A stretch of DNA of 24,000 nt from Acaryochloris sp. IP29b_bin.148 (GTDB lineage: Bacteria; Cyanobacteriota; Cyanobacteriia; Thermosynechococcales; Thermosynechococcaceae): NCBI RefSeq assembly GCF_028285565.1, contig NZ_JANQOY010000035.1, positions 4,406 through 28,405 on the forward strand, given 5' to 3'. Each line of letters starts with the position of its first letter. Positions within the stretch are counted from its first letter, which is position 1. Of the stretch, positions 861 through 20,193 are shown piece by piece. The position numbers were made by a program, and so were the translations under genes. The notes beneath the pieces are model-generated. The model was not told the DNA's origin. It saw only the letters and a list, made by a program, of their open reading frames with translations, and did not search any database.

Positions 861-1520
861 TCATACGTCATTACTTCTAAGAGTCACTGTGTATTGCACA
901 AGCTCAGTCGTCCCGTTTGGTAAATCACCCAAAATGCATAACCTGACGGATCGCTCACTCGACGTCAAGGGAGATGGCGATACTTCAAATCCTAAGGTCC
1001 CTGAGCCAGAACATCCCGGAGAAGTATTTGACACTCGATCCACTAACGGATTCCCTTTAGCGTTAGAGACTGTTGATCGGTAAATCACCTGTGGTCCCTG
1101 CCAATTAGACCCGGCAGAAGTATCAAATGTGTAGTAAGCAACCGTTGAATCATCCGGTTTTGTGAGGTAGAGGATAGCATTATAGTTAGCAGGGACAATC
1201 CAACCTGATGGAGCAGTGGTGGACACCGCCTTTGCCTCTCTAATATCGTCAGCAATAAAGTCTACAGCGCGGTTCAATTGAATATGCTGATCCACCTCAG
1301 CCTCTGTTTGGCGATGGCTTTGCAAAATTGAAATTAGCCCAGACCCAGCAAAAGCAAGGAAGATGCTGGTAATCACCATTCCCACAAGCAGCTCAACTAA
1401 AGTAAACCCTCGACTACTGGATTTCTGTCGCATATTTGGGGCTTTATAAGTGCTAAGCCGACCTCTCATATTTTGAGAGAGATACAGGATCAGGGTAGTC
1501 CTGGAGCTGGAATTCATCAT
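861..1520 (-). CDS. prepilin-type N-terminal cleavage/methylation-domain protein; PilW/GspJ-slot minor pilin (module 1)
   Basis: N-terminus ...KSSSRG|FTLVELLVGMVITSIFLAFAGSGLISIL carries Gly-1, Phe+1 and Glu+5 plus a hydrophobic alpha1 helix. The block TEA-x7-L-xRA-xDFI-xxx-IR-xA has identical spacing in the 361-aa product of 4664..5749, so the two are paralogues. The slot assignment is inferred from size and position. ATGA stop/start overlap with the upstream gene at 1517-1520. Met18/Met30 (1469/1433) are alternative starts giving shorter leaders. Confidence 0.85.
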   Translation of the reverse strand: MMNSSSRTTLILYLSQNMRGRLSTYKAPNMRQKSSSRGFTLVELLVGMVITSIFLAFAGSGLISILQSHRQTEAEVDQHIQLNRAVDFIADDIREAKAVSTTAPSGWIVPANYNAILYLTKPDDSTVAYYTFDTSAGSNWQGPQVIYRSTVSNAKGNPLVDRVSNTSPGCSGSGTLGFEVSPSPLTSSERSVRLCILGDLPNGTTELVQYTVTLRSNDV

Positions 1521-2086
1521 GTCGAGGTTTTACAGTTGCTGGCCAATGCTGTTGTGGGGGAGCCTGTATATGTTCCAACGCGGATCAATCCTATTCCTGG
1601 TGCGATCACTAAACACTTTGAGGGAGTACTGATTTCATTCGCGATAGATAGGACGACTGTTTCTTCTGAGATTAATGAAGGAGGTACGCGTCCTTTGAAG
1701 TCAAAACTAAGTGAGGGCGTAGACAGTGAATGTCTAAGTTGGAGACTTTCTAAGGTTCGATTGCCATTCCGCAGACATTCTGTAGGCGAACTGCTCAATA
1801 CGGAACTACTTCCTGCCGGCAAATTAATGGTGCAAGTCTTGCTTAAACGGATGGCTTGGTTTTGCCCCTCAATTAGAGTCCCTTCCAGTTCCGCTAAGCC
1901 CACTTCAAGCTTTCGGTTATTTACCCAAGATAGAAAGCTGGGGGCTGCAATGGCACCTAATATGCCCATGATTACTAAGACAGTAACGATTTCAAGCTGG
2001 GTAAAACCCTGTTCACTATGGACAGGCAAAGAACGCATTCGGTATGACCTCAGAACTGACTTGAGCGACTTGTTTCTGGTTCTCAT
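1517..2086 (-). CDS. prepilin-type pseudopilin, GspH/FimT-like (module 1)
   Basis: ...PVHSEQG|FTQLEIVTVLVIMGILGAIAAPSF has the prepilin motif with Glu+5. The blocks QAIRLSKTCTINL and C-terminal KCLVIAPGIGLIRVGTYTG are shared with the 317-aa product of 5719..6672 (EAIRGNKVCTLTL, KRCIAISNTLGLTRIGTYQG). The likely true start is Met17 at 2038, which gives an 11-aa leader, a GAGG 12 nt upstream and a 23-nt overlap with the upstream gene. Confidence 0.8.
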   Translation of the reverse strand: MRTRNKSLKSVLRSYRMRSLPVHSEQGFTQLEIVTVLVIMGILGAIAAPSFLSWVNNRKLEVGLAELEGTLIEGQNQAIRLSKTCTINLPAGSSSVLSSSPTECLRNGNRTLESLQLRHSLSTPSLSFDFKGRVPPSLISEETVVLSIANEISTPSKCLVIAPGIGLIRVGTYTGSPTTALASNCKTST

Positions 2087-2768
2087 CTGTAACGTTGTAA
2101 GTGACTTCCAAGATTTGATAGGGATTGGCCTGTCGCACTGAGGTTATCCTTTCTAGAGTGAATGCTCGACCTAGAAAGGTTTTTTGGCCAGTTTTTGGTG
2201 AGACGGTATTATCTGTTTCAGATGCGACTGCTGGCAGTGCTTCATCCAGATAGGCTGCAAAGCCTCCTGTATCGCGATCAGAGTAACATCTAGCTAATAC
2301 AAGTGTTGTGGCGTCAGTGGTTTGAGTCGATGTGAGTGGATCTCGCAAACTGACTTCTAAATAGTCTGTGCTGGTGGCAGGGTCTGTTAAAGTTTGTAGG
2401 GCCGTTATTTCGTTGCTATTGGATTCAGTACCAATCACAATAGAATCGCCTAACCGGAAGCCAGCCAACTGCGTAACTTTGATGGTCGTATCCCCTGCCA
2501 GGGCATCAGCATAGAGCAGTGCTGAGGTGTGAGGGACTTGGTTAACGTCACTGGCAATAGCCTTGACATCTTCTAAATCCTGCTGAATCCAGGTATTGGC
2601 TTCAGTCAACTGCTTTGCCCGAACCTTGAAAGATGTTGAGAGGACCAAACCCTGCATCGCCGTGCCGATAAATATCGCCAAAACAAGCATGGAGACAGCA
2701 ACTTCGACTAAGGTAAATCCTTGCGATTGAGTTTTTTTGAGGGCTCTAAGGGTAAGGAGAGTCTTCAT
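2016..2768 (-). CDS. prepilin-type pseudopilin (PilV/GspI slot, tentative; module 1)
   Basis: MKTLLTLRALKKTQSQG|FTLVEVAVSMLVLAIFIGTAMQGLVL has a prepilin motif with Glu+5 and a hydrophobic helix. It is the third small pilin-like gene of the module. The slot is assigned by elimination only, and 250 aa is large for PilV/GspI. Confidence 0.75.
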   Translation of the reverse strand: MKTLLTLRALKKTQSQGFTLVEVAVSMLVLAIFIGTAMQGLVLSTSFKVRAKQLTEANTWIQQDLEDVKAIASDVNQVPHTSALLYADALAGDTTIKVTQLAGFRLGDSIVIGTESNSNEITALQTLTDPATSTDYLEVSLRDPLTSTQTTDATTLVLARCYSDRDTGGFAAYLDEALPAVASETDNTVSPKTGQKTFLGRAFTLERITSVRQANPYQILEVTYNVTDENQKQVAQVSSEVIPNAFFACP

Positions 2769-2820
2769 GATATTGAGGCAAATGCTGAGTGTTTGATGGA
2801 TGGACAGATGTGTTTGTTGT

Positions 2821-4170
2821 TTACGGGGTTGCTTCCAAGCGTGTCCAACTCGTTGCGGCAGAGGTTTTATGGGAGGCTGAGGTAACGGTCACACCAGAAC
2901 TAGTGAGAAGTTGTTGCATGGCATTGGGGACTGTGATTTCAGCGGTATTTGAACTGGAGCCATCCCACTCTCTGACCCAAATGGCGCCCTGTATATCAGG
3001 ATTGCTGCTGCCGCCATTAATGCCCATACGGGCATCTGGAGCATGAATAAAAACATTGGTGGTTGTGGCTCCACCATTCAATGTGAAGTCTTGATCGGAA
3101 AAACTATCACCGTCATCGGCATTGCCATATATTCGAAAGCGTTCTGGGCTACCTAAGCCACTCCCATAAGTGCCGCAATTATTGGCAGAGCCTGAACAGG
3201 TATGGGCCAACGTGGCTTGGCCGCTCATCGCGATATTACCTGTGACGTAAAAATAGACGGGGGCTGAGGTGGTATCAACGGTGACCTGATCGCTGCCGCT
3301 AAGGGTAATATCACTCACTTGGTAGTGATAAGCACCATCGGTACCTACTGAATCTCCAGTTTTGGGAAAGCTGGTAGCGCCACTAATTGAGACATTGATC
3401 GCACCTGAGGGAATGGCGGGAACAGGAGGCCAAGTCACATCTCGAACATAAATTTGCCCTTGCACAACACTATTGTTGAGAGCCTCAATGGCTGTGCGCA
3501 GCCCCGTATCTGTCGGTTGACCATTCACACATTCACTGACTGGCACTGCACAGTTAATCGTATCTGTGCACACGACATTCCCTGAGACTGCCCCCAAGAC
3601 ATCATTATTTCCCAAGGTAATATATTGGGCCATCAACCCTGGAAAGCTAGCTGGGGATGTGGATTGAGAAATATTCATTGTCTGCTGAATCCGCGATACT
3701 GCAGACGAATTAGGGGGATGACCTTTGACAATTAAGGTTCCAGTTTCATCACCGGAATTTGAGATTCCATCTGGATCACTGTAGCGATAGGCCTCGACTG
3801 TATAGGTGTTGGCAGGTGCGTTGTTTGGAATCTTGCCTGTGAGGATATTATTTACCCCTGTAAAACAGGGAGGAGGCTTTGGGAGAAAAGACCATTCATC
3901 AGGACTATCCGCCCCTAAGAGACTATTCGGGTCGTAATCCGATTTCAGCAGCATATGATAATTGTGATTCAGAAATCCGAGGGTGCGGGATATTCCACCT
4001 TCTGCAACAGTGGCACTGGCCGTTGTTTGCTTTTGAGAAACGGCTGAGACTTGATCATCCCTAGACTTAATACTTAGAGTTAGTGCGACCAACACCATGA
4101 TCAACCCAAAACCGATGGTAATTGGCAAAGCAAACCCTTCATCAGTGGCCTTTTTTCTGGATTTCAACAT
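2821..4170 (-). CDS. large PilX_N/GspK-style pilus-tip (cap) protein lacking Glu+5 (module 1)
   Basis: MLKSRKKATDEG|FALPITIGFGLIMVLVALTLSI has a class III-like signal with Ile at +5 instead of Glu. That is the hallmark of PilX/GspK-type caps. It shares landmark motifs in the same order with the 513/517-aa paralogues: AEGGI(S/A)R, Y.V.AYRY, GTL.V, FPG, (Y)QV..I.L.G...(V/L).VDTT..PV, and a C-terminal N.F...P......G..W block. Confidence 0.7.
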   Translation of the reverse strand: MLKSRKKATDEGFALPITIGFGLIMVLVALTLSIKSRDDQVSAVSQKQTTASATVAEGGISRTLGFLNHNYHMLLKSDYDPNSLLGADSPDEWSFLPKPPPCFTGVNNILTGKIPNNAPANTYTVEAYRYSDPDGISNSGDETGTLIVKGHPPNSSAVSRIQQTMNISQSTSPASFPGLMAQYITLGNNDVLGAVSGNVVCTDTINCAVPVSECVNGQPTDTGLRTAIEALNNSVVQGQIYVRDVTWPPVPAIPSGAINVSISGATSFPKTGDSVGTDGAYHYQVSDITLSGSDQVTVDTTSAPVYFYVTGNIAMSGQATLAHTCSGSANNCGTYGSGLGSPERFRIYGNADDGDSFSDQDFTLNGGATTTNVFIHAPDARMGINGGSSNPDIQGAIWVREWDGSSSNTAEITVPNAMQQLLTSSGVTVTSASHKTSAATSWTRLEATP

Positions 4171-4663
4171 ACTTTTATAAAAGTGAAATATCGGTCAAAA
4201 ATATCTATACGAATTCACCCATTCAATCTTGAATAGGGTTAAACCAGTCATCAATAAGCAAATTAGATGATAGATATGGTTTTATTCGATGCTAATAAAG
4301 CTTTAGACGTTGATAAGCCAAAAGGGAGAAAAAAGCGTTGAGTTAACCTTATGGCGATAGACTTCTTTTTCAAGAGAAATCAATAAGATTTTAAACAGCT
4401 ATATCCCTTCATTCTGGAATTGTTTTTTTATTTTGTATTCGAAGTGTTTGATTTAGGTATATTTTTAGTATAAGAAGTAAAATATTACTTATCCTCAGTA
4501 ATTACACGTAGATCAAAATGTAAATTTATATTAATTTAAGGTTAAAATACTGACTGTAATAGGCTAGATTCGTCAATCTAGCAATTGTAGAAATAATCTC
4601 CTCCGACCTTGATTTAGATTAAATGATTCTCAAGCTCTACACAGCCGACAACCATCCATATCA

Positions 4664-5749
4664 TTAGAGGGTTGAGTGAGACATCTGAGTAAAGCAGACC
4701 TTATTGCTTGCAGAGCTTGTGATTTGTCCCACCTTTGCAATGACGGTGTAGCAATGCTGATCTCCAGTGGAGCCTGTCATCTCAGTAGCGTTACTCATAC
4801 TTGAACCACTATAAATTTGGGATTTTTGGGCCGTTGTGATGACCTCCTTGTTCACTTCAAAGGTGACCCCATTCATGGAACCCGACCATTGCCAGCTCAA
4901 GTCAATCTGATTGGTACCAGGTTGTTGAGTCGCAGTTAGAACTGGAACTGGGGAGCTATTGACTGAACGGGAGGTGGCAGTACTGCTTAATCGATGAATT
5001 TCCACATCAGAAATTTTGCTCCGCATGGTTAAATCGACCTGGCTGCCCTTTACACAGGCTTGAAATCCTCCTTTCCCTACCAATACGCCCGGTGCAGGAC
5101 AAGTGGGCGTGGTATCGATTTGCTCTGCGATCGCATCCACCAAAGTATCGCTAGCAACGGGATTGCTGCAGGGGTCAATGCTGCCATCACTTTTGGGAAT
5201 GCGACCGTAGCGATGAATAGCATTGGGGGCTAACCAATCTTGACTGCTAGGACGAATATCATAAACCACCTGATCATAGGTTGTAGGTTGAGGGGGAGGA
5301 GAACCCGCGTTGGGGCCACCCATCGGGCAAACATTAGGAACTTGAGCGCTAATGGGGATCTCTAAGTAAAGAACAGGGTTATTCCAGTTAGAGGCATCTA
5401 ACCCCGCACTCGTCAGCATATTGGACATGGAAGCAGCATTCGTTGCCTGCATCACTTGAGATTGGTTGATGCGGGTCGCCATTCTAATTTCGTTGCTAAT
5501 GAAATCAAAGGCTCGACTTAAGTCATGACGTCTAGCTGCAATGGCTTCGGTCCGCTGATTAGTTCGAGTGGCTGCAATGACCCCAAATCCTGCAATACTG
5601 ACCACCAAACTAGTGATGCCAGCTGCAACCAATAACTCCACGAGGGTAAAGCCGTTGCGAACCTTAGAATCCGCTTTGGAGTGCCTATCATTCAAACCCG
5701 ATGTTCTCAATGGAGACTTCATTGCTCCTCCCAGTTCTCGGCAGTGCAA
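4664..5749 (-). CDS. prepilin-type minor pilin, PilW/GspJ-slot, with C-terminal FN3/Ig-like module (module 2)
   Basis: ...DSKVRNG|FTLVELLVAAGITSLVVSIAGFGVIAA has Glu+5. It is a paralogue of 861..1520. The probable start is Met10 at 5722, which forms an ATGA overlap with the stop of the upstream gene (5719-5722). The last ~90 aa (PVPVLTATQQPGTNQIDLSWQW...HCYTVIAKVGQITSSASNKVCF) have an FN3-like beta-sandwich pattern. Confidence 0.8.
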   Translation of the reverse strand: MHCRELGGAMKSPLRTSGLNDRHSKADSKVRNGFTLVELLVAAGITSLVVSIAGFGVIAATRTNQRTEAIAARRHDLSRAFDFISNEIRMATRINQSQVMQATNAASMSNMLTSAGLDASNWNNPVLYLEIPISAQVPNVCPMGGPNAGSPPPQPTTYDQVVYDIRPSSQDWLAPNAIHRYGRIPKSDGSIDPCSNPVASDTLVDAIAEQIDTTPTCPAPGVLVGKGGFQACVKGSQVDLTMRSKISDVEIHRLSSTATSRSVNSSPVPVLTATQQPGTNQIDLSWQWSGSMNGVTFEVNKEVITTAQKSQIYSGSSMSNATEMTGSTGDQHCYTVIAKVGQITSSASNKVCFTQMSHSTL

Positions 5750-6672
5750 CGACCTGAGTCGGTAATCGCCGTAGGTCTCATATCCCCTTGATAAGTACCA
5801 ATGCGGGTTAAACCGAGGGTATTGGAAATCGCAATACAGCGTTTCGTGCTTCTCGTGTCGTCAGGATTGTAAAAAACTATCTTGCCGCTCGGATCGGCGG
5901 GCACTTGTTGGGAACTGACAATTGCAAATTCAGGATTGCCTAAGACACCATACTGAATGGGAATACTGGTCGATATCTCTGCATTGGGTGGCAGCTCATC
6001 GCTCCCATCCTCTGAATCCTTATCTTTGCAGGTTCCTAAGCCTAATCCTTTCTCTGTGTTTCCTTTACATTTGGCGATCACTTGAACCACAATGCCTGCT
6101 TTAGGTGTGTTAGTGTCCGGTTCAGGTGCAGTCGCTAAGGCAATTTGGGAAACGGTCTCTCCATCGTTGACTCCCAAAGCGGGTTGAATATCCGAACCGA
6201 TCAGAACAGGTTGTTCTGTCGAAGGGGTAGGGGTGGCGCTAGAACTCGGGTCAGTGAGATTCGTCGCAATCGCAACGTCGGCATCCAACTTGCGATCGCC
6301 CGTTATTAGACAAGGCCCCGTGATCGTCCCTTCTACAAAATTAAGAGTTAGGGTACAGACTTTGTTGCCCCTAATCGCTTCGCGTTGTGTTTCATTTAAA
6401 GCGGTCCGCACTTCGGCCATGGTTTGTTTAACCTTGGCCCGATTCATGGTTGCCATAATGCTGGGAGCTGAGGCAGCAGCGGTAATGCCAATAATAGCCA
6501 CAATCACCATCTTCTCCGCCAGGGTAAACCCCGCTTCAGAGAGAGATTGTTTTGTTTTACCGAATGGATGGAACCAGAACATAGCAAGTCCAAGTAGGAA
6601 AATAATATAGAAGAAAAGCATGCCCCTTATGGAGATAAGAGGGGTAACAAATTGAGCGCAATTCTGCATCAC
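5719..6672 (-). CDS. prepilin-type pseudopilin, GspH/FimT-like, expanded (module 2)
   Basis: ...KQSLSEAG|FTLAEKMVIVAIIGITAAASAPS has Glu+5. It is a paralogue of 1517..2086 (see that entry) with a ~95-aa extra segment. The full ORF would place a hydrophobic stretch before the signal, so Met31 (start 6582, 18-aa leader) is a plausible true start. Confidence 0.75.
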   Translation of the reverse strand: MMQNCAQFVTPLISIRGMLFFYIIFLLGLAMFWFHPFGKTKQSLSEAGFTLAEKMVIVAIIGITAAASAPSIMATMNRAKVKQTMAEVRTALNETQREAIRGNKVCTLTLNFVEGTITGPCLITGDRKLDADVAIATNLTDPSSSATPTPSTEQPVLIGSDIQPALGVNDGETVSQIALATAPEPDTNTPKAGIVVQVIAKCKGNTEKGLGLGTCKDKDSEDGSDELPPNAEISTSIPIQYGVLGNPEFAIVSSQQVPADPSGKIVFYNPDDTRSTKRCIAISNTLGLTRIGTYQGDMRPTAITDSGRCTAENWEEQ

Positions 6673-6738
6673 CCCCGAGAATTGCTAAAGGTTGTATCGA
6701 GGAAACACAAGAGAGGGAGTAAGGTTAAGGCATCTTCG

Positions 6739-8280
6739 TCATAACCTCACCCGTTGCCATTGCAAAACACCCCCGAATCGGTAACGGGCAGGCCAGTCAA
6801 TATATTTCAATAGGCCAAGCAGGCTAGTGACGTCTTCGGGCACAGTAATGCCAGAAGTTACGCCTGATTTTGTGGTTTTATCGTAGTCACCATCGCCATA
6901 TCCCAAATATTTCACATCACGATGAGTGGCCTCATTCTTGGAGCTAAGGATGGCTTCCATCCATAGGACCCCTTCAACATTTGTGTTTTGTCTCCCTGGA
7001 CAGCCAGGTCCCGTGGTCAGCAACCTTAATTCATCATAGGGAAACCACAAAAAGGCATTTTGAATACACGTTTGGTCATAGAGGGTAACCCGATCATCTT
7101 TTCTCGCAATGATGCGGAGATCGCCGACGCGGGACGGTTGCCCATCCGTTCGTACATTCAGGATCTTGGCTGACTCGCGAAGGGTGATGCCATGTTCATG
7201 CCCACCTGTATTAGAAATGTCAATTTGGACAGGTCCGTTCGTCGTATCAACGGTCAATACTTCTTCCCCACTCAGATCGATTTGATCAACAGTAAAGTAG
7301 GTGGGTGTCTTGCCCCCCACACCTGTAATCGTCAGACTGTCATCGATTGTCCCGAGATCGGTGCCGACCTCTCCAACAGGGAGGTTGGGTCTAAGCGTAC
7401 AAGCAAAAATATTTCCTTGAACGGTATCTTCACTGACGCCATCCAGGGTTGAAGACCAAATGGCATTTAAATAACTGCCCCGATCAGCGTCTTCTGGCCC
7501 AGCACTGGCAGTCAGAGAGGGATCGACTGAGGAAGAAGGGTGATAATAAACATTCGCTTTACTCCCTTGCAGTTCACGTCCCCTTAAGGCCAATACCCCT
7601 GTCGCATAGGTTGAGTCAGGATTGCCTGTGGGTTCAATTAAGACCACCCCTGGAAAATCGGACAAATCAGGGGTTACTGAGATGCTAATAACGACCCCTG
7701 TTGTTTTCCCGTCCTGACTGGCTTCTACGAATAATGTCCCTTTTTGTTCCAAGGGATTAAACCGATAGGCTGTAATGGTGTAAGTGCCGGTTTCTCCAAT
7801 GGACCCGGTTGTTACAAGGTTGGGACTGCCCCATGCTTTTTGCTGGTGGCAGGATGTACTACTCGGGTCATAGCCGGTCCATTCATCAATCGCGTTGGCC
7901 TCTTCGTCCCCACTATTGAATCTGCCATCAGGTCCCAGATAAGTCTTGCCTGTTTTAGGGTTAATCGTATCGAAATTGCGATTCAGGAGGACGGCATTAT
8001 TGGGTGCGGTGAGTTGAGCGAGGGATCGAGCTATTCCCCCTTCAGCAGCGGCTAAACTTGCACCTGCTTCTTTGCGATTAAAGGCAGAGGTGCGATCGCT
8101 TTGGGCAACCAACATCGTCGACAGTCCTAAAACCATCATGACAAAGCCCAATCCCATTGCCAAGGGTAAGGCAAATCCCTGGCAGCGTGTCTCCATGCCT
8201 GGAGACCTCCGACCCTGTCTAAGCCACCATCGGTAAAGAGTTGTAGAGAATTTCTGTCTCAAAATACCTTTTTCTATCAT
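6739..8280 (-). CDS. large PilX_N/GspK-style cap-like protein lacking Glu+5, tandem paralogue B (module 2)
   Basis: ...METRCQG|FALPLAMGLGFVMMVLGLSTMLVA has Leu at +5. It aligns full-length with 8599..10152: 85/122 identical in one segment I aligned by hand, and the C-terminal blocks are near-identical. Confidence 0.75.
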   Translation of the reverse strand: MIEKGILRQKFSTTLYRWWLRQGRRSPGMETRCQGFALPLAMGLGFVMMVLGLSTMLVAQSDRTSAFNRKEAGASLAAAEGGIARSLAQLTAPNNAVLLNRNFDTINPKTGKTYLGPDGRFNSGDEEANAIDEWTGYDPSSTSCHQQKAWGSPNLVTTGSIGETGTYTITAYRFNPLEQKGTLFVEASQDGKTTGVVISISVTPDLSDFPGVVLIEPTGNPDSTYATGVLALRGRELQGSKANVYYHPSSSVDPSLTASAGPEDADRGSYLNAIWSSTLDGVSEDTVQGNIFACTLRPNLPVGEVGTDLGTIDDSLTITGVGGKTPTYFTVDQIDLSGEEVLTVDTTNGPVQIDISNTGGHEHGITLRESAKILNVRTDGQPSRVGDLRIIARKDDRVTLYDQTCIQNAFLWFPYDELRLLTTGPGCPGRQNTNVEGVLWMEAILSSKNEATHRDVKYLGYGDGDYDKTTKSGVTSGITVPEDVTSLLGLLKYIDWPARYRFGGVLQWQRVRL

Positions 8281-8598
8281 TCACCTATGGGACAGCCCCC
8301 CTGTATTAGGGGCAAAAGAACACTTCATCCATGGATAGCCGAGCAAAGGGTATAGAATAGTTCGCCTAATAGAAAGGCATGGCAACACATCAAATTGAGC
8401 CAAAGCCAATGGGGAACACTAGCAGGACTGTGTGACCCAACAACCCTCCTTTGAGTGTGGCCTTTACCCGCCCGGTTCGACGACAGAAAGAACACGGAAT
8501 TCTTTCCTGGCAAGCTATGTAAATATCGATTTGGATCCGTAATTCTAGGGACAAGGCCCGTATCTATACGATCGCCATACTAGGCACTGATACCCCGA

Positions 8599-10152
8599 TC
8601 ACAACCGTACATGTTGCCAACTTTGCACCTTCCCAAATCGGTAACGAGCAGGCCAGTCTATGTACTGAAGCAAATCCATCAGACTGGAAACATCTTCAGG
8701 TACCGCAATCCCGGAGGTCACCCCAGTTTCAATCCGATCATCGTAATTGGTACCGTTGAAACCGCCGAGAAAGTTGACTGATCGATTACTAGGATTGTTT
8801 TTGGCGGTCAGAATGGCTTCCATCCACAGCACACCTTCCACGTTGGTGTTTCTATCCCCTGGACAGCCCCGTCCTGAAGTGAGGAGTCTTAATTCGTCAT
8901 AGGGAAACCATAGGAAAGCATTTTGAATACAGCTTTGGTCATAGAGGTTGATTTGACTGTTCCCTCTTGCAAGAAGACGAAAGTCTCCCACCTGGACAGG
9001 TTGATCATCAGTCCGAATATTGAGGATTTTGGCACGATCCCGTAAGGTGATCACCAATTCAGGATCCCTTCCCCGATCAATGACCTCAATGTGGACAGGA
9101 CCATTCGTTGTATCAACCTGAAGGACTTCCTCGTTGTCTAATTCAATCTCTTCGACCTGATATAAGGTGGGGACCTTGCCGCCTATGCCTTGTATTGTTT
9201 GGCTTTCGGTAATCTTGCCCAAGTTCGTTCCTGGAGCAGTAGTGGGCAACTTCGGAGGGACATTACAGGCAAATATTGTTCCTGCAACGGTGTCCCCATC
9301 AGCGCCATCTAAATCGTCTGTGGACCAGATTGCATTTAAATAATCATCACGGTTTGCGTCACCTGGCGCTGCACTGTCGCTCAAAGATGAATCAGCCGAG
9401 CCGTCTGGATTGTAGTAAATATTCCCCTTACTCCCTAAAATTTCTCGCCCTCTCAAGGCAAAAAGCCCGGCATCAAACGCCCCCCGGGTATTTTGCGAGA
9501 CCACAATCCCAGGAAAATGGTCTAAATCCGGTGCCACACTAATGGAGATCAGTACCCCCGAGATTTGCCCGTTGGCACTAGATTCGACCAGTAAGGTTCC
9601 CTGCTGTTGTTGCGGATCATAGCGATAGGCTCTAAGGATGTACGTTCCGTCTGAACCGATAGAACCTGTGGTTTGAAAATTAGGCGATCCCCAGCCCATT
9701 TGTAAATGACAAGGCTGATTGCTGGGATCATAGTCTGTCCATTCATCAATCGCTTGAGCGGTTTCATCTCCGCTATTGAGGATGCCATCCGGACCTAAGT
9801 ATGTTTTACCTGTTTTAGCGTTAATTGTGTCGTAATTGCGATTCAGGAGAACGGCGTTATTGGGAGCCGTGAATTGGGCCAATATCCGGGCTACACCGCC
9901 TTCCGTTAAGGATAGGCTGGCATTAGATTCTTTTCGTTGCCAAGATGCGATGCGATCGCTTTGAGCCATCATCAACATGGATACTCCTAAGACCGCCATC
10001 ACAAAGCCCAATCCTAAGGCAAGCGGCAAGGCAAATCCTGCTTCTTGGGCTTGAATCTTGTCACCCCAAGCACGTGTTTGCTGCAACCATCGACAGAACT
10101 TTACAGCAGAACGATTCACTGGCCTCATGGCTTTTCCTAATGCGATGAGCAA
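8599..10152 (-). CDS. large PilX_N/GspK-style cap-like protein lacking Glu+5, tandem paralogue A (module 2)
   Basis: ...KIQAQEAG|FALPLALGLGFVMAVLGVSMLMMA has Leu at +5. It is a paralogue of 6739..8280 and the first gene of the minus-strand cluster. Met9 is an alternative start. Confidence 0.75.
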   Translation of the reverse strand: MLIALGKAMRPVNRSAVKFCRWLQQTRAWGDKIQAQEAGFALPLALGLGFVMAVLGVSMLMMAQSDRIASWQRKESNASLSLTEGGVARILAQFTAPNNAVLLNRNYDTINAKTGKTYLGPDGILNSGDETAQAIDEWTDYDPSNQPCHLQMGWGSPNFQTTGSIGSDGTYILRAYRYDPQQQQGTLLVESSANGQISGVLISISVAPDLDHFPGIVVSQNTRGAFDAGLFALRGREILGSKGNIYYNPDGSADSSLSDSAAPGDANRDDYLNAIWSTDDLDGADGDTVAGTIFACNVPPKLPTTAPGTNLGKITESQTIQGIGGKVPTLYQVEEIELDNEEVLQVDTTNGPVHIEVIDRGRDPELVITLRDRAKILNIRTDDQPVQVGDFRLLARGNSQINLYDQSCIQNAFLWFPYDELRLLTSGRGCPGDRNTNVEGVLWMEAILTAKNNPSNRSVNFLGGFNGTNYDDRIETGVTSGIAVPEDVSSLMDLLQYIDWPARYRFGKVQSWQHVRL

Positions 10153-10545: not shown

Positions 10546-10947
10546 ATGTCAACTAGCAAATCTTTAGTGTCTTTAGGAAGTTGCGTCTTTGTGGCATTGA
10601 CTGCAGCGCTCCCCTTTAGTGCGCAGGCCCAAGGAAATCCTTCCCAGTTAGGTATTCCTGAAGAGACAACATTTGCCATCATCACGCGGATGAGTGATAC
10701 CGTAGCTGCTCGTATCTCAGCTTCGTCTTGTGACGATACTCGTAATCTTCTCAAAGCCATGCGTAAGAGCAAGGGCGGCAAAACCTCTGAGCTATCCTTG
10801 GAAGGCCAATTGCTCGCGTCTGCTCAAACCCAACCGAAATTAAAGCAAGTGGTGGCTAATCGAGTGGGTACCGCCTTAGCGCTCAAGCTGATGGATTGCA
10901 ATATGATGAATCCCGATACCTTAGGAGCCTTGTTTGACCAGAGATAG
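10546..10947 (+). CDS. small secreted hypothetical protein (133 aa)
   Basis: AGGAG lies 7 nt upstream of the ATG. The N-terminal Sec signal is MSTSKSLVSLGSCVFVALTAALPFSAQA|QG. The mature part looks helical, with no motif I recognise. Confidence 0.6.
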   Translation: MSTSKSLVSLGSCVFVALTAALPFSAQAQGNPSQLGIPEETTFAIITRMSDTVAARISASSCDDTRNLLKAMRKSKGGKTSELSLEGQLLASAQTQPKLKQVVANRVGTALALKLMDCNMMNPDTLGALFDQR

Positions 10948-10956
10948 TTAAACAGT

Positions 10957-12297
10957 CTAGTTTTCTACCCTATCGTGCTGGGCCTGGTAGACCTGATTAC
11001 GGCCTAACGACTTGGCAATATAGAGCGCCTGATCGGCTTGTTTGATCAGGTGCTCTTTGGTTTCGGCATCGGACGGAAAAGTCGCCACACCCAAACTGGC
11101 CGTCATTCCTATTTTCTGCAAGGAGGGCAGAATAACGGTTTCTTTCGCAATCGCTAGACGGATGCGCTCTGCGATCGCAGCACTATCATCACTATGCGTT
11201 TTGGGCAGGATAACGGCAAACTCTTCGCCACCGTATCGACAGACCACATCCCCCGGACGGACTTCCCGTTGCAGGAGTTGAGCTACTTCGCACAGGGCTA
11301 AATCCCCAGCCTGATGGCCGTAGGTATCATTTAATTGCTTGAAATGATCAATATCCACCATGATCAGCGAGACTTGATTGGTATTGCGCTGCGATCGCTC
11401 AACCTCCACCCTCAGCCAGCGATTGAATTCTCGTCGATTGTAAACCTCCGTCAGACCATCCAAGGTTGCTAATCGATATAAGTCCTGCTGGCTTTGCTCC
11501 AGTTTGGCCGCCATCAGGTTAAAGGTTTCAGCCAAATGACTAAACTCATCGTCGGTGGTCAGCGCAATTCGATGACTTAAATCCCCCTTGCCCAATTTCT
11601 CAACGCCTTGCTCTAAGGTTTGCAGGGGAACCGTAATGGACTGGGAGAGACTATACGCAAATAAGGCCGCCAACGCCACAGCCAAACCACAAATGATGGT
11701 AATTAGCTGTCTAACTTTCTGTCGAACCGTCTCTGCATGAGCAGCATTGGCATCATTCTGAAACACAATTAACCGATAATTCAGTTGTTGGACGTCTTGC
11801 AGAATCATTTTGAGCTGTTCTTTGAGTTCAACCCTGGCCGATGCTGACAAGTTAGGCCTGGATTGAGCAACAGAGGGGTCTAGAATTTGTTGACACAGTT
11901 GCGAAATTCGTTTCCATTTCCGCTGTATTTCCAGAACAGCATTTACCTGGGCTGGATCCTGATGGGAAAATTTTGAGAGCCTAGCCAAACTTATTTTAAT
12001 GGCCTGACTTTTGGCCTGGTACTCATCCCACGTCATTGGGACAGAGGGTTCTACGGGAGAGGTAACAACATTTAAATCTAAGAGTAACCCCTCAACATGG
12101 GCCAGAGGGAACAATGCTTCTCGGCCTACATTGTCGCGCTGCTTAAAACTATCTAATGCCCCTTCAAAGGAAACGACAGCCCCTCCTGCCAACATCAGCA
12201 AGGGGACCAACATAGTTCCTAAACCTAATCTTAGGCGTTGGTTTAGAGATGTTTTAGGTGTAAACCAAAAGGGCATAACATCCTGTTTATTCAGCAC
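10957..12297 (-). CDS. membrane sensor diguanylate cyclase (2TM periplasmic domain-HAMP-GGDEF)
   Basis: TM1 is at about aa 24-44 and TM2 at about aa 197-217, followed by a HAMP-like segment (ITVPLQTLEQGVEKLGKGDLSHRIALTTDDEFSHLAETFNLMAAKL). The GGDEF domain has LTEVYNRREF, DIDHFKQLNDTYGHQAGD and active-site RYGGEEF (11218-11232). The RxxD I-site RPGD sits exactly 5 residues upstream (11248-11259). Confidence 0.9.
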   Translation of the reverse strand: MLNKQDVMPFWFTPKTSLNQRLRLGLGTMLVPLLMLAGGAVVSFEGALDSFKQRDNVGREALFPLAHVEGLLLDLNVVTSPVEPSVPMTWDEYQAKSQAIKISLARLSKFSHQDPAQVNAVLEIQRKWKRISQLCQQILDPSVAQSRPNLSASARVELKEQLKMILQDVQQLNYRLIVFQNDANAAHAETVRQKVRQLITIICGLAVALAALFAYSLSQSITVPLQTLEQGVEKLGKGDLSHRIALTTDDEFSHLAETFNLMAAKLEQSQQDLYRLATLDGLTEVYNRREFNRWLRVEVERSQRNTNQVSLIMVDIDHFKQLNDTYGHQAGDLALCEVAQLLQREVRPGDVVCRYGGEEFAVILPKTHSDDSAAIAERIRLAIAKETVILPSLQKIGMTASLGVATFPSDAETKEHLIKQADQALYIAKSLGRNQVYQAQHDRVEN

Positions 12298-18390: not shown

Positions 18391-18438
18391 AGTCTGTTTT
18401 GCAAAGCTAGAGGTTGCTTTAGCTTTGCAAAACAGACT
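18391..18438. repeat. perfect 18-bp inverted repeat with 12-nt spacer
   Basis: AGTCTGTTTTGCAAAGCT (18391-18408), spacer agaggttgcttt, AGCTTTGCAAAACAGACT (18421-18438). The arms are exact reverse complements. Neither strand has a flanking U-tract, so this is not a canonical terminator. Confidence 0.9.
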
Positions 18439-18816: not shown

Positions 18817-20193
18817 ATGAAGCGAAGAAGATTTTCACAGCTAGCAGGCAACTTTTTGGCGGGAGTAGCCTTATCAAGCTGCGCAAAAGGCCCAAAAATC
18901 TTGCCTAAGCAAAAGAATCTTGAGGGCAAAAAACTACAGATATGGTGGGAAGAAGGTTTTTATCCTGAAGAAATTGATTCACTTAAAAAAATAATTACCC
19001 AGTGGGAAAATAAGAATGAAACAGCCATTGAATTGACTATTATTCCACAAAAGGATATTCTCGCAGATCTTGAGAATGCTATCCAATCTGGGAATCCACC
19101 TAATATATTCTATTCAGGTTCAGGGGACCTAACCGTTATTCCTCGTCTTGCCTGGAATAGCCAATTAGTGGATGTTTCAGATGTCGTTTTGCCGCTTCAA
19201 GATCAATATAGTTTAAATGCATTAGTGGGTGTTAACTATCGCAATAGATCTAAGAAAAAAAGAAGCTATTATGCAGTCCCTTTAATGCAGTCAGCGATCC
19301 ATATTCATTATTGGGAAGATATATTAATCAATCAGGTCGGCGAGAAACGAGATACTATCCCTAAAGACTGGAAAGATTTTTGGGACTTTTGGGTCCAAGC
19401 CCAGGATAAACTGCAACAAAATAACCAGACCGATATCTATGGATTAGGAATGCCCATGTCCCTGAGCCTAGATACGTATAACAACTTTGAGCAATTTCTA
19501 GAGAGTTACGATGCTCAGATTCTGGATTCTTCGGGGCAGTTGAATATCAATAATCCTCGAACTAAACAAGCCCTCAGTAAAGCGCTGGAAGCTTACACTC
19601 GTTTTTTCCTGAATGGACAAGTTCCTCCTGGTGCAATTGATTGGGACAATACAGGTAATAACGTTTCGTTGCTCAGTCAATCCAGCTTAATGACGGTAAA
19701 CCATACCTTATCAGCCCCCGGATCTCAGCGAAATGATCCAGAAACATACTATCGTCGACTTTCTACAATCAAGTGGCCCAATAAGCCGAACGGGACATCT
19801 ATGCGGTTTGTGGTAGAGCTTAAGCAGGCGGTTATTTTTAATCACTTAGATCATGTCAGTCAAGCCAAAGCGTTTTTAGCTTTCTTAGCTCAGCCAGAGA
19901 ACCTCGCAGCCTATACCAAAGGAGCACAGGGACGCTACCTGCCCGTTATGCCTGCCCTATTCGACGATCCCTTTTGGCAAGATGCTAAGGATTCGCACAT
20001 TTCGGTTGCCGTCGAACAACTACGAAATACTCGACCCGCCTACCAAGTCTTTAATCCAGCCTATGGAGAGGTGGCAGAGCAGAATGTTTGGGGTGATGTC
20101 ATTCGTAAAATTGCGGTCGAGAATCTTTCGATTGAACAAGCAACAGAGCAGGCTATTGCTCAAATTGAAACGATTTTTTCAGAGTGGGAATAG
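18817..20193 (+). CDS. ABC-type extracellular solute-binding protein (family 1, sugar-type), Tat/lipoprotein signal
   Basis: MKRRRFSQLAGNFLAGVALSSC|AKG has a twin-arginine-like n-region plus an LSSC lipobox. The mature part follows the family-1 SBP pattern (KLQIWWEEGFYPEEIDSLKKIITQWENKN...IELTIIPQKDILADLENAIQSGNPPNIFYSG...), and the size of about 430 aa fits. Confidence 0.85.
   Translation: MKRRRFSQLAGNFLAGVALSSCAKGPKILPKQKNLEGKKLQIWWEEGFYPEEIDSLKKIITQWENKNETAIELTIIPQKDILADLENAIQSGNPPNIFYSGSGDLTVIPRLAWNSQLVDVSDVVLPLQDQYSLNALVGVNYRNRSKKKRSYYAVPLMQSAIHIHYWEDILINQVGEKRDTIPKDWKDFWDFWVQAQDKLQQNNQTDIYGLGMPMSLSLDTYNNFEQFLESYDAQILDSSGQLNINNPRTKQALSKALEAYTRFFLNGQVPPGAIDWDNTGNNVSLLSQSSLMTVNHTLSAPGSQRNDPETYYRRLSTIKWPNKPNGTSMRFVVELKQAVIFNHLDHVSQAKAFLAFLAQPENLAAYTKGAQGRYLPVMPALFDDPFWQDAKDSHISVAVEQLRNTRPAYQVFNPAYGEVAEQNVWGDVIRKIAVENLSIEQATEQAIAQIETIFSEWE

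Follow-up and report, generated by a model that had tools for sequence, protein, structure and literature searches.

Two Tandem Paralogous Minor-Pilin Sets in an Acaryochloris Genome: Probable Priming and Tip Complexes Around Solenoid-Bearing PilX-Type Proteins

Introduction

The closest described relatives of the locus reported here are the cyanobacterial core minor-pilin sets PilX-PilV-PilW-FimT, which come as "Com" and "EPS" types and are exemplified by PilA5-8 with PilX1-3 and by PilA9-12 in Synechocystis, and by tll2333-35 and tlr0680-82 in T. vulcanus (Schuergers et al., 2026, bioRxiv 10.64898/2026.02.12.705559). In Synechocystis, two of these sets were shown by experiment to prime two types of filament independently of each other, and both cyanobacterial set types prime genuine surface filaments of PilA1 (Schuergers et al., 2026). 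The same February 2026 preprint assigns a beta-solenoid within the pilin fold to all cyanobacterial PilX proteins, describes its likeness to the solenoids of ice-binding proteins, proposes a PilY1-like plug role for the large PilX, treats PilV as the obligate pair of PilX, places HpsA in the PilX_EPS branch, and notes that A. marina has several sets, with 44 pilins. Outside the cyanobacteria, ComZ of Thermus thermophilus, which pairs with PilA2 (PDB 6QVI; Salleh et al., 2019, PMC6561018), is a tip-located DNA-binding pilin that was argued, on structural grounds, to fit solely at the pilus tip.

We think it likely that the Acaryochloris locus encodes two paralogous core minor-pilin sets for type IV filaments, i.e., priming and tip complexes built around solenoid PilX caps. 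With the sets of Schuergers et al. it shares the four families, a large PilX predicted to bear a solenoid, the presence of several sets per genome on what would be one machine, and the lack of PilY1; it departs from them in that two sets stand in tandem, of which one (module 2) has two PilX and zero PilV, an extended PilW, an enlarged FimT and a recurrent diguanylate cyclase neighbour. Like the proteobacterial T4aP and T2SS complexes (FimU-PilVWX-PilY1; GspHIJK), the locus combines a cap lacking Glu5 with four candidate priming minor (pseudo)pilins, and weak PilX_N, GspH and GspJ similarity is detectable, with all curated Gsp/Pil models below their cut-offs. Compared with proteobacterial PilX/GspK, however, the cap is larger by a factor of 3-4 and carries the predicted solenoid, the gene order is different, and there is no separate PilY1.

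The locus is thus a real but largely expected example of the system in the preprint, which has largely overtaken the novelty that a first-pass annotation of this DNA had claimed for it. The annotation's proposal of alternative tips on one machine, with a large PilX replacing PilY1, coincides with conclusions and hypotheses of Schuergers et al. (2026). The new details are the recurrent HAMP-GGDEF neighbour, the lineage-variable C-terminal domain of PilW, and the duplicated and decaying sets of A. marina.

Organization of the locus

Between positions 861 and 10152 of a 24-kb window of an Acaryochloris MAG (the window being the whole stretch of DNA analysed), eight consecutive minus-strand ORFs each start with a prepilin-type signal (Table 1), as the first-pass annotation had described. 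A six-frame scan of the whole window with the pattern G-[FILMVY]-[STA]-[LIQMV]-x-E-[ILVMATKQ] returned exactly five sites, those of genes A, B, C, E and F, while chance alone would give ~0.06 occurrences of the strict form GFT[LQ]xE over the six frames (a rough estimate from assumed amino-acid frequencies). The Pfam N_methyl model exceeds its cut-off for A, C (27.1 bits) and E, with F just under it (18.6 vs. 21.2 bits), and TIGR02532 exceeds its cut-off for A, B, C and E. The stop/start overlaps noted earlier were read directly from the sequence. The AT-rich spacer is present as well, and module 1 presumably has its own promoter there. Members of module 2 are indeed larger than their module 1 counterparts, but the lengths previously quoted were those of maximal ORFs, and likely starts shorten B, E, F and G. 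The remaining ORFs of the window include no gene for a pilus filament, a motor or a PilY1-type protein, just as was claimed, and the window contains no vWA or beta-propeller protein.

Table 1. Features of the locus, with positions in the window and lengths from the likely starts where these differ from the maximal ORFs
Feature	Position	Strand	Length (aa)	N-terminal signal	Assignment and remarks
114-aa ORF	251-595	minus	114		Downstream of module 1
Gene A	861-1520	minus		G↓FTLVE, hydrophobic helix	PilW/GspJ/HpsC-like candidate minor pilin; ATG overlaps stop of B (ATGA, 1517-1520)
Gene B	1517-2086	minus	~173	G↓FTQLE, hydrophobic helix	FimT/GspH-like candidate minor pilin; likely start Met17; partial GspH, ComGD and PpdA-type NCBIfam matches
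Gene C	2016-2768	minus	250	G↓FTLVE, hydrophobic helix	PilV/HpsB-like candidate minor pilin; weak N-terminal HpsB and PilV matches
Gene D (module 1 cap)	2821-4170	minus	449	G↓FALP, hydrophobic helix, no Glu5	PilX-like minor pilin; beta-solenoid predicted within pilin fold (AF2)
Inter-module spacer	4171-4663				493 bp, AT-rich (29.8% GC vs. 47-49% in genes)
Gene E	4664-5749	minus	~352	G↓FT(L/Q)xE, hydrophobic helix	PilW-like candidate minor pilin; likely start ATG 5722, overlapping stop of F (ATGA, 5719-5722)
Gene F	5719-6672	minus	~287	G↓FT(L/Q)xE, hydrophobic helix	FimT/GspH-like candidate minor pilin; likely start 6582; N-terminal GspG, GspH and ComGD NCBIfam matches
Gene G (module 2 cap B)	6739-8280	minus	~485	(E/Q/A)G↓FALP, hydrophobic helix, no Glu5	Second PilX-like protein of module 2
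Gene H (module 2 cap A)	8599-10152	minus	509	(E/Q/A)G↓FALP, hydrophobic helix, no Glu5	PilX-like minor pilin with predicted beta-solenoid; NCBI start (P0001, Acaryochloris sp. IP29b_bin.148, 100% identical)
133-aa protein	10546-10947	plus	133		Signal peptide; between cyclase and cap A
Diguanylate cyclase	10957-12297	minus			Membrane HAMP-GGDEF; Pfam GGDEF 169 bits, HAMP 48 bits; upstream of module 2

The two modules are paralogous. By BLASTP, A and E are 27.5% identical over 218 aa (E=5e-11), B and F 35% over 105 aa (E=5e-13), D and either G or H 25-27% over 345-441 aa (E ~1e-19), and G and H 61%; B and F align over their full length, and A and E over the pilin core. This bears out the proposed cross-module relationship of the FimT-like and PilW-like proteins. 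The claim that both modules have the same gene order stands only in part: module 1 reads PilX-PilV-FimT-PilW (D-C-B-A), but module 2 reads PilX-PilX-FimT-PilW (H-G-F-E), with gene G in the slot held by PilV in related sets. The subclass calls (FimT for B and F, PilW for A and E, PilV for C) are best read as provisional, since they derive from N-terminal or transitive similarity and position rather than from fold comparison. Where computable against two other Acaryochloris genomes, dN/dS of the eight genes is 0.05-0.17 (for H, dS is saturated).

The large PilX-type proteins

The assignment of the three large Glu5-less proteins to the PilX/GspK class of caps, made in the first-pass annotation, is supported by predicted folds and by family relationships. 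In the AF2 models of both D (pLDDT 85.8) and H (pLDDT 85.3), a long alpha1 helix is followed by a small sheet and a long beta-solenoid, after which the chain is predicted to return in a C-terminal strand. In D the helix spans 15-68, the sheet has 3 strands, the solenoid covers ~177-413 and the last strand lies at 434-445. ComZ was the sole significant PDB match of both models in Foldseek searches (6qvi_B, E=4.5e-6 for D; 6qvi, E=2e-4 for H, followed by ice-binding-protein solenoids). ComZ thus shares with the predicted folds of D and H a pilin framework into which a large beta-solenoid is inserted; sequence identity, on the other hand, is ~10-12%, and TM-scores are so low (~0.2; range 0.18-0.22) that the likeness is one of architecture, without tight superposition. 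Gene D additionally matches Pfam DUF7305 (28.2 bits, cut-off 27), homologues of the large proteins carry the name "pilus assembly PilX family", and 277 of the 281 homologues with a recognisable signal have no Glu at +5, FALP being the commonest motif. With 2,215 cluster representatives at E<=1e-3, this is also a large family.

In the mechanism that we favour for these minor-pilin sets, a prepilin peptidase would cleave the subunits, which would form a small inner-membrane complex to nucleate the polymerising pilus and stay at its tip afterwards. Genes elsewhere would encode the major pilin, the motor ATPases, the platform, the secretin and the peptidase. The large Glu5-less PilX-type subunit would form the apex of each set. 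Since its solenoid appears too bulky for any other site, we infer a tip position, where it would probably plug or cap the filament and bear a binding surface, much as PilY1/PilC does in proteobacteria and ComZ in Thermus.

Module 1 and the Thermosynechococcus set

Module 1 forms a complete set. Its gene C is the sole PilV-like gene in the window, and both its N- and C-terminal parts are homologous to a ~193-aa gene that related sets carry after PilX and ahead of FimT. Module 1 has the gene order of a four-gene Thermosynechococcus set, PilX-(265 aa)-GspH-domain protein-(214 aa), and corresponding genes are 29-38% identical. Gene C is 29% identical to the second gene of that set, and gene B shares 38% identity across 172 aa with its Pfam-GspH protein. 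Primers used for the deletion of tll2333-35 in T. vulcanus find sites in the 3' flank of this set at 2 and 3 mismatches (expected by chance: 0.005 for a match with <=2 mismatches and 0.095 for one with <=3), and the set therefore appears to be the competence-type tll2333-35 locus, although the matches are short and the Thermosynechococcus genome is a different one. Deletion of tll2333-35 abolishes transformation (Schuergers et al., 2026). Of the two modules, only module 1 may tentatively be regarded as the counterpart of a competence-type set.

Module 2 and alternative readings

Module 2, a paralogous set that has diverged, is under purifying selection, with dN/dS of 0.08-0.13 for E, F and G (F 0.08-0.11; G 0.10 against L005 and L007). 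Alignments place a ~90-aa Cys-containing insertion, specific to Acaryochloris, in F, and an extra C-terminal domain of ~90 aa with two invariant Cys in E. The latter has no match in Pfam or PDB profile searches, and relatives of E have a VHL-beta domain there instead (PF01847, E=3.5e-7), so that this part of PilW varies by lineage between VHL-beta and an unclassified two-Cys domain. Not even a remnant of PilV was found in module 2 by tblastn, and it thus has no PilV-type partner in cis, whereas ComZ pairs with PilA2. Considering that PilV is the obligate partner of PilX in the preprint, module 2 may not be a self-sufficient complex. The suggestion of two alternative tip complexes is therefore weakened for module 2 on its own, although the two priming sets known in Synechocystis speak for it. 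We would view module 2 as a functional set with two alternative caps, an enlarged FimT and an extended PilW, which would have to borrow its PilV, either from gene C or from a gene elsewhere in the genome.

Alternatively, module 2 could be a cassette of exchangeable binding-domain parts (the two PilX caps as alternatives, a PilW extended by a domain and a FimT with its insertion) that combine with the single PilV encoded by C and diversify the tip of one complex, with no independent priming. The presence of one PilV-like gene for two modules, the PilV slot filled by a second PilX, and the lineage-dependent PilW domains would all fit. So would the hypervariability of the upstream cap H, the most divergent gene of the locus, which is 58-70% identical to its closest relatives in close strains vs. 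92-94% for D, and the tandem linkage of the modules in three other Acaryochloris genomes (L005, L006, L007). We nonetheless find this reading doubtful. Most relatives of module 2 are, unlike module 2 itself, PilX-PilV-FimT-PilW sets that stand alone without module 1 (L010, L020-L022, L025-L030, L032, L033); moreover, the FimT and PilW of module 2 would be redundant, and the spacer suggests separate transcription.

It is also conceivable, though improbable, that the sets form the tips not of surface pili but of short periplasmic pseudopili, acting as T2SS-like or Hps-like pistons that secrete polysaccharide or proteins. The small subunits weakly match GspG/H/J and HpsB/HpsC, one relative is annotated as a "type II secretion system protein", and the Nostoc hps locus ties PilX-type and pseudopilin genes to polysaccharide secretion (Schuergers et al., 2026). 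However, all these Gsp/Hps matches lie far below curated cut-offs and cover the N-terminal helix only, the window holds no glycosyltransferase, GspD/E/F or hps biosynthesis genes, the nearest structure in the PDB is that of a tip protein from a competence pilus, and the filaments primed by both cyanobacterial set types are surface ones. The resemblance to Nostoc punctiforme hps (HpsA and pseudopilins HpsB-D), which had been pointed out earlier, holds for the large-gene-first order but does not extend to orthology, which we rejected: HpsC is the best NCBIfam match of A and E, and the matches of C include HpsB, but these models score 12-42 bits vs. cut-offs of 150-200; an NCBIfam profile search gave no HpsA-type match for D, G or H.

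That module 2 is a decaying, non-functional duplicate from the expansion of Acaryochloris pilin sets, as its missing PilV and the degraded copies in A. marina MBIC11017 (PilW in three fragments in L008, absent in L006) might suggest, is very hard to reconcile with its four intact ORFs, the low dN/dS of E, F and G, and the retention of PilX-PilX-FimT-PilW in L007 and L011. A. marina itself carries duplicated, decaying sets, and plasmid pREB1 holds one of the copies.

Neighbouring genes

A HAMP-GGDEF diguanylate cyclase, to which module 2 is genomically linked, is a recurrent neighbour of module-2-type sets: it has a GGEEF motif and an RxxD I-site, and at 10 other loci, spread over several genera, full-length orthologues that include the sensor domain adjoin the set. 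The first-pass annotation had missed this conserved neighbour. The 133-aa protein, which gave zero family matches, keeps its position in other Acaryochloris loci (L004, L005, L011; 83-89% identity). The 114-aa ORF, with zero family or PDB matches, recurs just downstream of related sets (L005, L011, L025, L026; 40-71% identity), its pREB1 copy being AM1_RS29280, annotated "hypothetical protein", and may be an accessory gene.

Gene layout and prepilin signals

Reading the window ORF by ORF recovers all eight minus-strand genes that the first-pass annotation had assigned to two tandem minor-pilin modules, each at its expected position. Every one of the eight translations opens with a class III signal: a short, basic leader with a terminal Gly is followed by a hydrophobic residue, mostly Phe, at +1 and by a hydrophobic alpha1N helix of about 20 residues. 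A six-frame motif scan returned exactly five G|FT(L/Q)xE sites in the 24 kb, those of A, B, C, E and F; Pfam N_methyl and/or TIGR02532 score above cut-off in A, B, C and E and just below it in F. The translations of D, G and H carry G|FALP(I/L) and a hydrophobic helix, and lack Glu5.

Coordinates and types of the minor-pilin genes and flanking ORFs in the window
Feature	Position	Strand	Type	Signal or remark
A	861-1520	minus	PilW/GspJ-like	G|FT(L/Q)xE
B	1517-2086	minus	FimT/GspH-like	G|FT(L/Q)xE
C	2016-2768	minus	PilV/GspI-like	G|FT(L/Q)xE
D	2821-4170	minus	PilX-like	G|FALP
E	4664-5749	minus	PilW-like	G|FT(L/Q)xE
F	5719-6672	minus	FimT-like	G|FT(L/Q)xE
G	6739-8280	minus	second PilX	G|FALP
H	8599-10152	minus	PilX	G|FALP
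Diguanylate cyclase	10957-12297	minus	membrane HAMP-GGDEF	from domain search; upstream of H
114-aa ORF	251-595	minus	no known domain	recurs just downstream of related sets
133-aa ORF	10546-10947	plus	signal-peptide ORF	between cyclase and first PilX (H)

The cross-module paralogy is borne out by BLASTP (A with E, E=5e-11; B with F, E=5e-13; D with G and with H, E about 1e-19), and G and H are 61% identical to each other. The ATGA overlaps and the inter-module spacer (493 bp, 29.8% GC) are likewise present in the sequence. Two descriptions need adjusting. The gene lengths quoted earlier are those of maximal ORFs, and the likely starts give somewhat shorter products for B, E, F, G and H. The modules are indeed paralogous sets, but their content is not identical, as module 2 (H-G-F-E) lacks PilV and has a second PilX instead. 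The remaining window ORFs encode no pilin, motor, platform, secretin, peptidase or PilY1-type protein, in agreement with the earlier statement that filament and motor genes are absent nearby, and no pilD gene was found in the window. Scans for tRNAs and Rfam families gave no match, and promoter and terminator scans gave counts at background levels. The window belongs to an Acaryochloris metagenome-assembled genome: a hypothetical protein of Acaryochloris sp. IP29b_bin.148 matches the product of H at 100% identity. An exact-sequence look-up returned nothing for D and, for the annotated product of H, only a 4-kb Logan contig. On the copy whose RefSeq labels were checked, that on plasmid pREB1, the genes are called 'hypothetical protein' or generic prepilin-domain protein.

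Relation to known minor-pilin systems

A preprint of February 2026 sorted the pilins of 90 cyanobacterial genomes into six families and defined the core sets as PilX-PilV-PilW-FimT (Schuergers et al., 2026, bioRxiv 10.64898/2026.02.12.705559). In that work a triangular beta-solenoid resembling ice-binding proteins breaks up the pilin fold of every cyanobacterial PilX, and this domain is put forward as a provider of PilY1's plug function; the sets form two lineages, 'Com' and 'EPS', with HpsA within EPS; and two Synechocystis sets were found experimentally to prime two filament types independently on one shared machine (Schuergers et al., 2026). The idea that the two modules are alternative tip complexes served by one machine encoded elsewhere is partly supported; it is thus essentially the current view and no longer new. 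The same preprint, which reports 44 pilins and multiple sets in A. marina, is the only item in the literature searched that mentions Acaryochloris minor pilins.

The suggested likeness to the hps locus does not amount to membership of the hps system (HpsA-D). Overall, HpsB and HpsC matches reach 12-42 bits against cut-offs of 150-200, with 42 and 31 bits against 200 for HpsC and 17.6 against 150 for HpsB, all through the N-terminal helix only. NCBIfam returned no HpsA-type match for D, G or H, and no glycosyltransferase was found in the window.

The large PilX-type proteins

Homologue alignments were built for D (A1) and H (A2), and confident AlphaFold models were obtained for both proteins (AF2 pLDDT 85.8 for D and 85.3 for H; pTM 0.78 for both). 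The two models follow a common plan, in which an N-terminal helix exceeding 50 residues leads into a small beta-sheet; then come the solenoid, built from many short strands in succession, a short helix and the last strand. In these predicted structures the order of secondary structure fits a pilin fold whose penultimate and last beta-strands are separated by a large beta-solenoid. In a Foldseek search of the models against the PDB, D and H each have one significant target, the Thermus thermophilus protein ComZ (6QVI; E=4.5e-6 for D, E=2e-4 for H), followed for H by ice-binding-protein solenoids at E about 0.3. Since the TM-scores are low, about 0.2, the likeness of the models to ComZ is one of common architecture and not a tight fit. 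ComZ is itself a pilin with a beta-solenoid insertion, has been argued to fit solely at the pilus tip, and binds DNA (PMC6561018).

Glu5 is absent in 277 of the 281 homologues with a recognisable signal, and its absence is, judging from these sequences, a trait of the whole family, which numbers 2,215 representatives at 50% clustering (E<=1e-3). D reaches 28.2 bits against a cut-off of 27 for Pfam DUF7305 (PF23981), a family carried by several close homologues of H; G reaches 14.3 bits against 25.5 for PilX_N (PF14341), and H has no Pfam match. Thermosynechococcus relatives of D bear the name 'pilus assembly PilX family'. A profile search with A1 of a word-indexed database added few sequences and no named model-organism proteins. 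Domain searches found no PilC/PilY1 beta-propeller or vWA domain in any window ORF; unlike PilY1/PilC, D, G and H are pilins with solenoids and do not belong to the PilY1 family. They could nonetheless be PilY1-like in their working.

The small subunits

B and F have no direct match to PF12019 (GspH) and score 23.6-26.8 bits against a cut-off of 80 for the NCBIfam GspH model; the Thermosynechococcus counterpart of B, 38% identical, matches PF12019 at 1e-8. Matches of A, C and E to curated models are N-terminal only (GspJ 15-21.5 bits against 64.85; PilV E=0.15; HpsC 31-42 bits; HpsB 17.6 bits), and the labels PilW/GspJ for A and E and PilV/GspI for C were given by position and by the preprint's four-family scheme. 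A PDB profile search with the FimT-like alignment matched only the N-terminal helices of full-length pilins and carried no subclass information.

Two of the module 2 subunits bear additional domains. In the alignment, F and other Acaryochloris FimT-like proteins have an insertion of ~90 residues with a conserved Cys pair. The insertion (window 5950-6230 in F) contains a KCKGN...GLGTCK motif common to Acaryochloris; other lineages have unrelated, low-complexity inserts at a nearby alignment position, such as the Asn/Gly/His repeats in locus L010. The PilW-like subunit of module-2-type sets has an additional C-terminal domain in two alternative, lineage-dependent forms (variants listed for related loci L012, L019, L020, L021, L027, L028 and L034): one is a VHL-beta domain (PF01847, E=3.5e-7), and the other, present in E (window 4664-4940), comprises ~90 residues with two invariant Cys. 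An FN3 assignment for the C-terminal domain of E was not supported, as Pfam gave no match and the PDB profile search gave a borderline RAD23 ubiquitin-like hit (E=0.001).

Module 1 and a probable competence-type assignment

Module 1 is colinear, in the order D-C-B-A, with a Thermosynechococcus set (L001) that encodes a PilX-like protein of 560 aa, a 265-aa product, a 170-aa protein with a GspH domain and a 214-aa N_methyl protein, the identities being 36, 29, 38 and 37%, respectively. Compared with L001, two of the primers used to delete tll2333-35 in T. vulcanus match the 3' flank of the set: primer 3F at the last L001 gene's end, with 2 mismatches, and primer 4R further downstream, with 3 mismatches (chance expectation in shuffled sequence, 0.005 matches at <=2 mismatches and 0.095 at <=3). 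Deletion of tll2333-35 abolishes natural transformation and leaves motility unaffected (Schuergers et al., 2026, 10.64898/2026.02.12.705559). Com-type sets are recognised by orthology to one whose loss abolishes natural transformation, such as T. vulcanus tll2333-35, Synechocystis PilA5-8 and S. elongatus PilA3/PilW/RntA/RntB. From the colinearity with L001, the short primer matches and the tll2333-35 phenotype, we tentatively read module 1 as a complete Com-type set.

Module 2: composition, relatives and selection

Scanning one genome per species for the H family gave 32 loci, which were compared ORF by ORF. The usual form of a module-2-type set comprises PilX, a PilV-like protein (~193 aa), a FimT-like protein and a PilW-like protein, and it is found in Acaryochloris, other Acaryochloridaceae and Thermosynechococcaceae, Altericista, Chroococcidiopsis and Chlorogloea. 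Here G, the second PilX, fills the PilV slot, and a tblastn search of 4664-10152 found no PilV remnant. L007 and A. marina L011 share this PilX-PilX-FimT-PilW form. C, the sole gene of this kind in the window, is homologous at both ends to the ~193-aa PilV-like proteins. The tandem of module 2 and module 1 is kept in L005, L006 (A. marina MBIC11017, 5.934-5.955 Mb) and L007.

Relative to two other Acaryochloris genomes, dN/dS is 0.08-0.13 for E, F and G, similar to the 0.05-0.17 of module 1. By this measure module 2 is not decaying, and a reading of its genes as pseudogenes was rejected. H is only 58-70% identical to its nearest relatives, compared with 92-94% for D in the same genomes. Against L005 and L007, dS is higher for module 2 genes (0.9-2.0) than, within the same pairs of genomes, for module 1 genes (0.36-0.77), a contrast suggesting that module 2 alleles are older or have been exchanged; for H, the upstream PilX, dS has reached saturation with all relatives.

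The chromosome of A. marina MBIC11017 carries at least four such sets (L006, L008, L011 and L025), three of them within ~65 kb (5.889-5.955 Mb), and a near-duplicate set lies on pREB1 (L026/L035, 93.5-98.0 kb), a plasmid typed as conjugative. Degraded copies also occur in A. marina, with PilW in three fragments in L008 and missing from L006.

The neighbouring diguanylate cyclase

The translation of the cyclase gene upstream of H has its GGEEF motif and RxxD I-site intact. Full-length orthologues (42-84% identity), alignable through the N-terminal sensor region (cyclase alignment A6), adjoin module-2-type sets in 10 further loci from several genera (L005, L008, L009, L011, L016, L020, L022, L028, L032 and L033), a forward count that runs from the sets to the neighbouring cyclase; they are absent in about half of the loci with enough flank. 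The cyclase usually comes first, 70-370 bp before PilX and on the same strand; the exceptions are L033, where it follows PilW, and L008, where it is still attached to PilV after an inversion. A scan of metagenome contigs with the cyclase sensor/HAMP region gave 73 loci that were dominated by generic HAMP matches and included no true orthologue. In Synechocystis, c-di-GMP controls minor-pilin operons (PMC12288463). The linkage suggests that the expression or activity of the module 2 tip may be tied to c-di-GMP.

Mechanism and alternative readings

The job of a type IV pilus, be it DNA uptake, motility, adhesion or sensing, is decided by its minor-pilin tip complex. Cyanobacteria lack PilY1, and both the solenoid PilX as a substitute and separate sets for separate filaments were proposed only in 2026. 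Acaryochloris is the extreme case given its reported pilin number, and the present locus offers a concrete, well-resolved example in which a complete, probably competence-type set stands next to a diverged one that has two caps and domain-bearing subunits and lacks PilV. From established knowledge of type IV pilus and type II secretion priming complexes, together with the preprint, the most likely mechanism is as follows. A prepilin peptidase would cleave the minor-pilin products of both modules, and subunits of FimT, PilW, PilV and PilX type would then stack via their N-terminal helices into a priming complex, beneath which the major pilin would polymerise, leaving the solenoid PilX at the apex as a plug and binding surface. 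The filament primed by module 1 is probably of the competence type, and module 2 probably serves to prime or decorate a tip of a second kind that has other binding properties, taking its PilV from elsewhere or from gene C.

Alternatively, module 2 could be a cassette of exchangeable parts for one complex, which is plausible, if less likely. That both sets are pseudopilus tips for secretion appears less likely still. A dead duplicate is the least credible reading of module 2, contradicted as it is by the purifying selection on its genes.

Beyond the probable two-tip arrangement, it is conceivable, if rather doubtful, that module-2-type sets and their co-encoded HAMP-GGDEF cyclase form a dedicated surface- or ligand-sensing unit. 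The conserved periplasmic/membrane sensor of the cyclase would read the tip complex or the inner-membrane pool of subunits and convert this into c-di-GMP; recognition would be set by the variable PilW C-terminal domain (VHL-beta or two-Cys) and the hypervariable upstream PilX; and the absence of PilV and the presence of two PilX in Acaryochloris would represent a new tip architecture and no defect. An analogue exists in Pseudomonas, in which PilY1 and PilW/PilX signal through SadC. The parts worth following are the two PilX, the missing PilV, the domain-bearing PilW and FimT of module 2 and the recurrent diguanylate-cyclase neighbour. If the cyclase link and the lineage-specific PilW domains are functional, they would open a way to test how tip composition leads to c-di-GMP signalling and ligand specificity; if not, the value lies mainly in better annotation.

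Flanking ORFs and other features

The 114-aa ORF has counterparts in L005 (17742-18086), L011 (17715-18098), L025 (15622-15984) and L026 (14698-15054), and its copy on plasmid pREB1 is AM1_RS29280, a 'hypothetical protein'; it may be an accessory gene. The 133-aa ORF has no match in a family search and recurs at the same position with 83-89% identity in the Acaryochloris loci L004, L005 and L011. Farther along the window, the 15-19 kb region has 37-40% GC and includes an M23 peptidase gene, and ~380 bp upstream of a solute-binding-protein gene (18817-20193), within AT-rich sequence, there is a 22-nt inverted repeat (18391-18438; 95% complementary, 4-nt loop).
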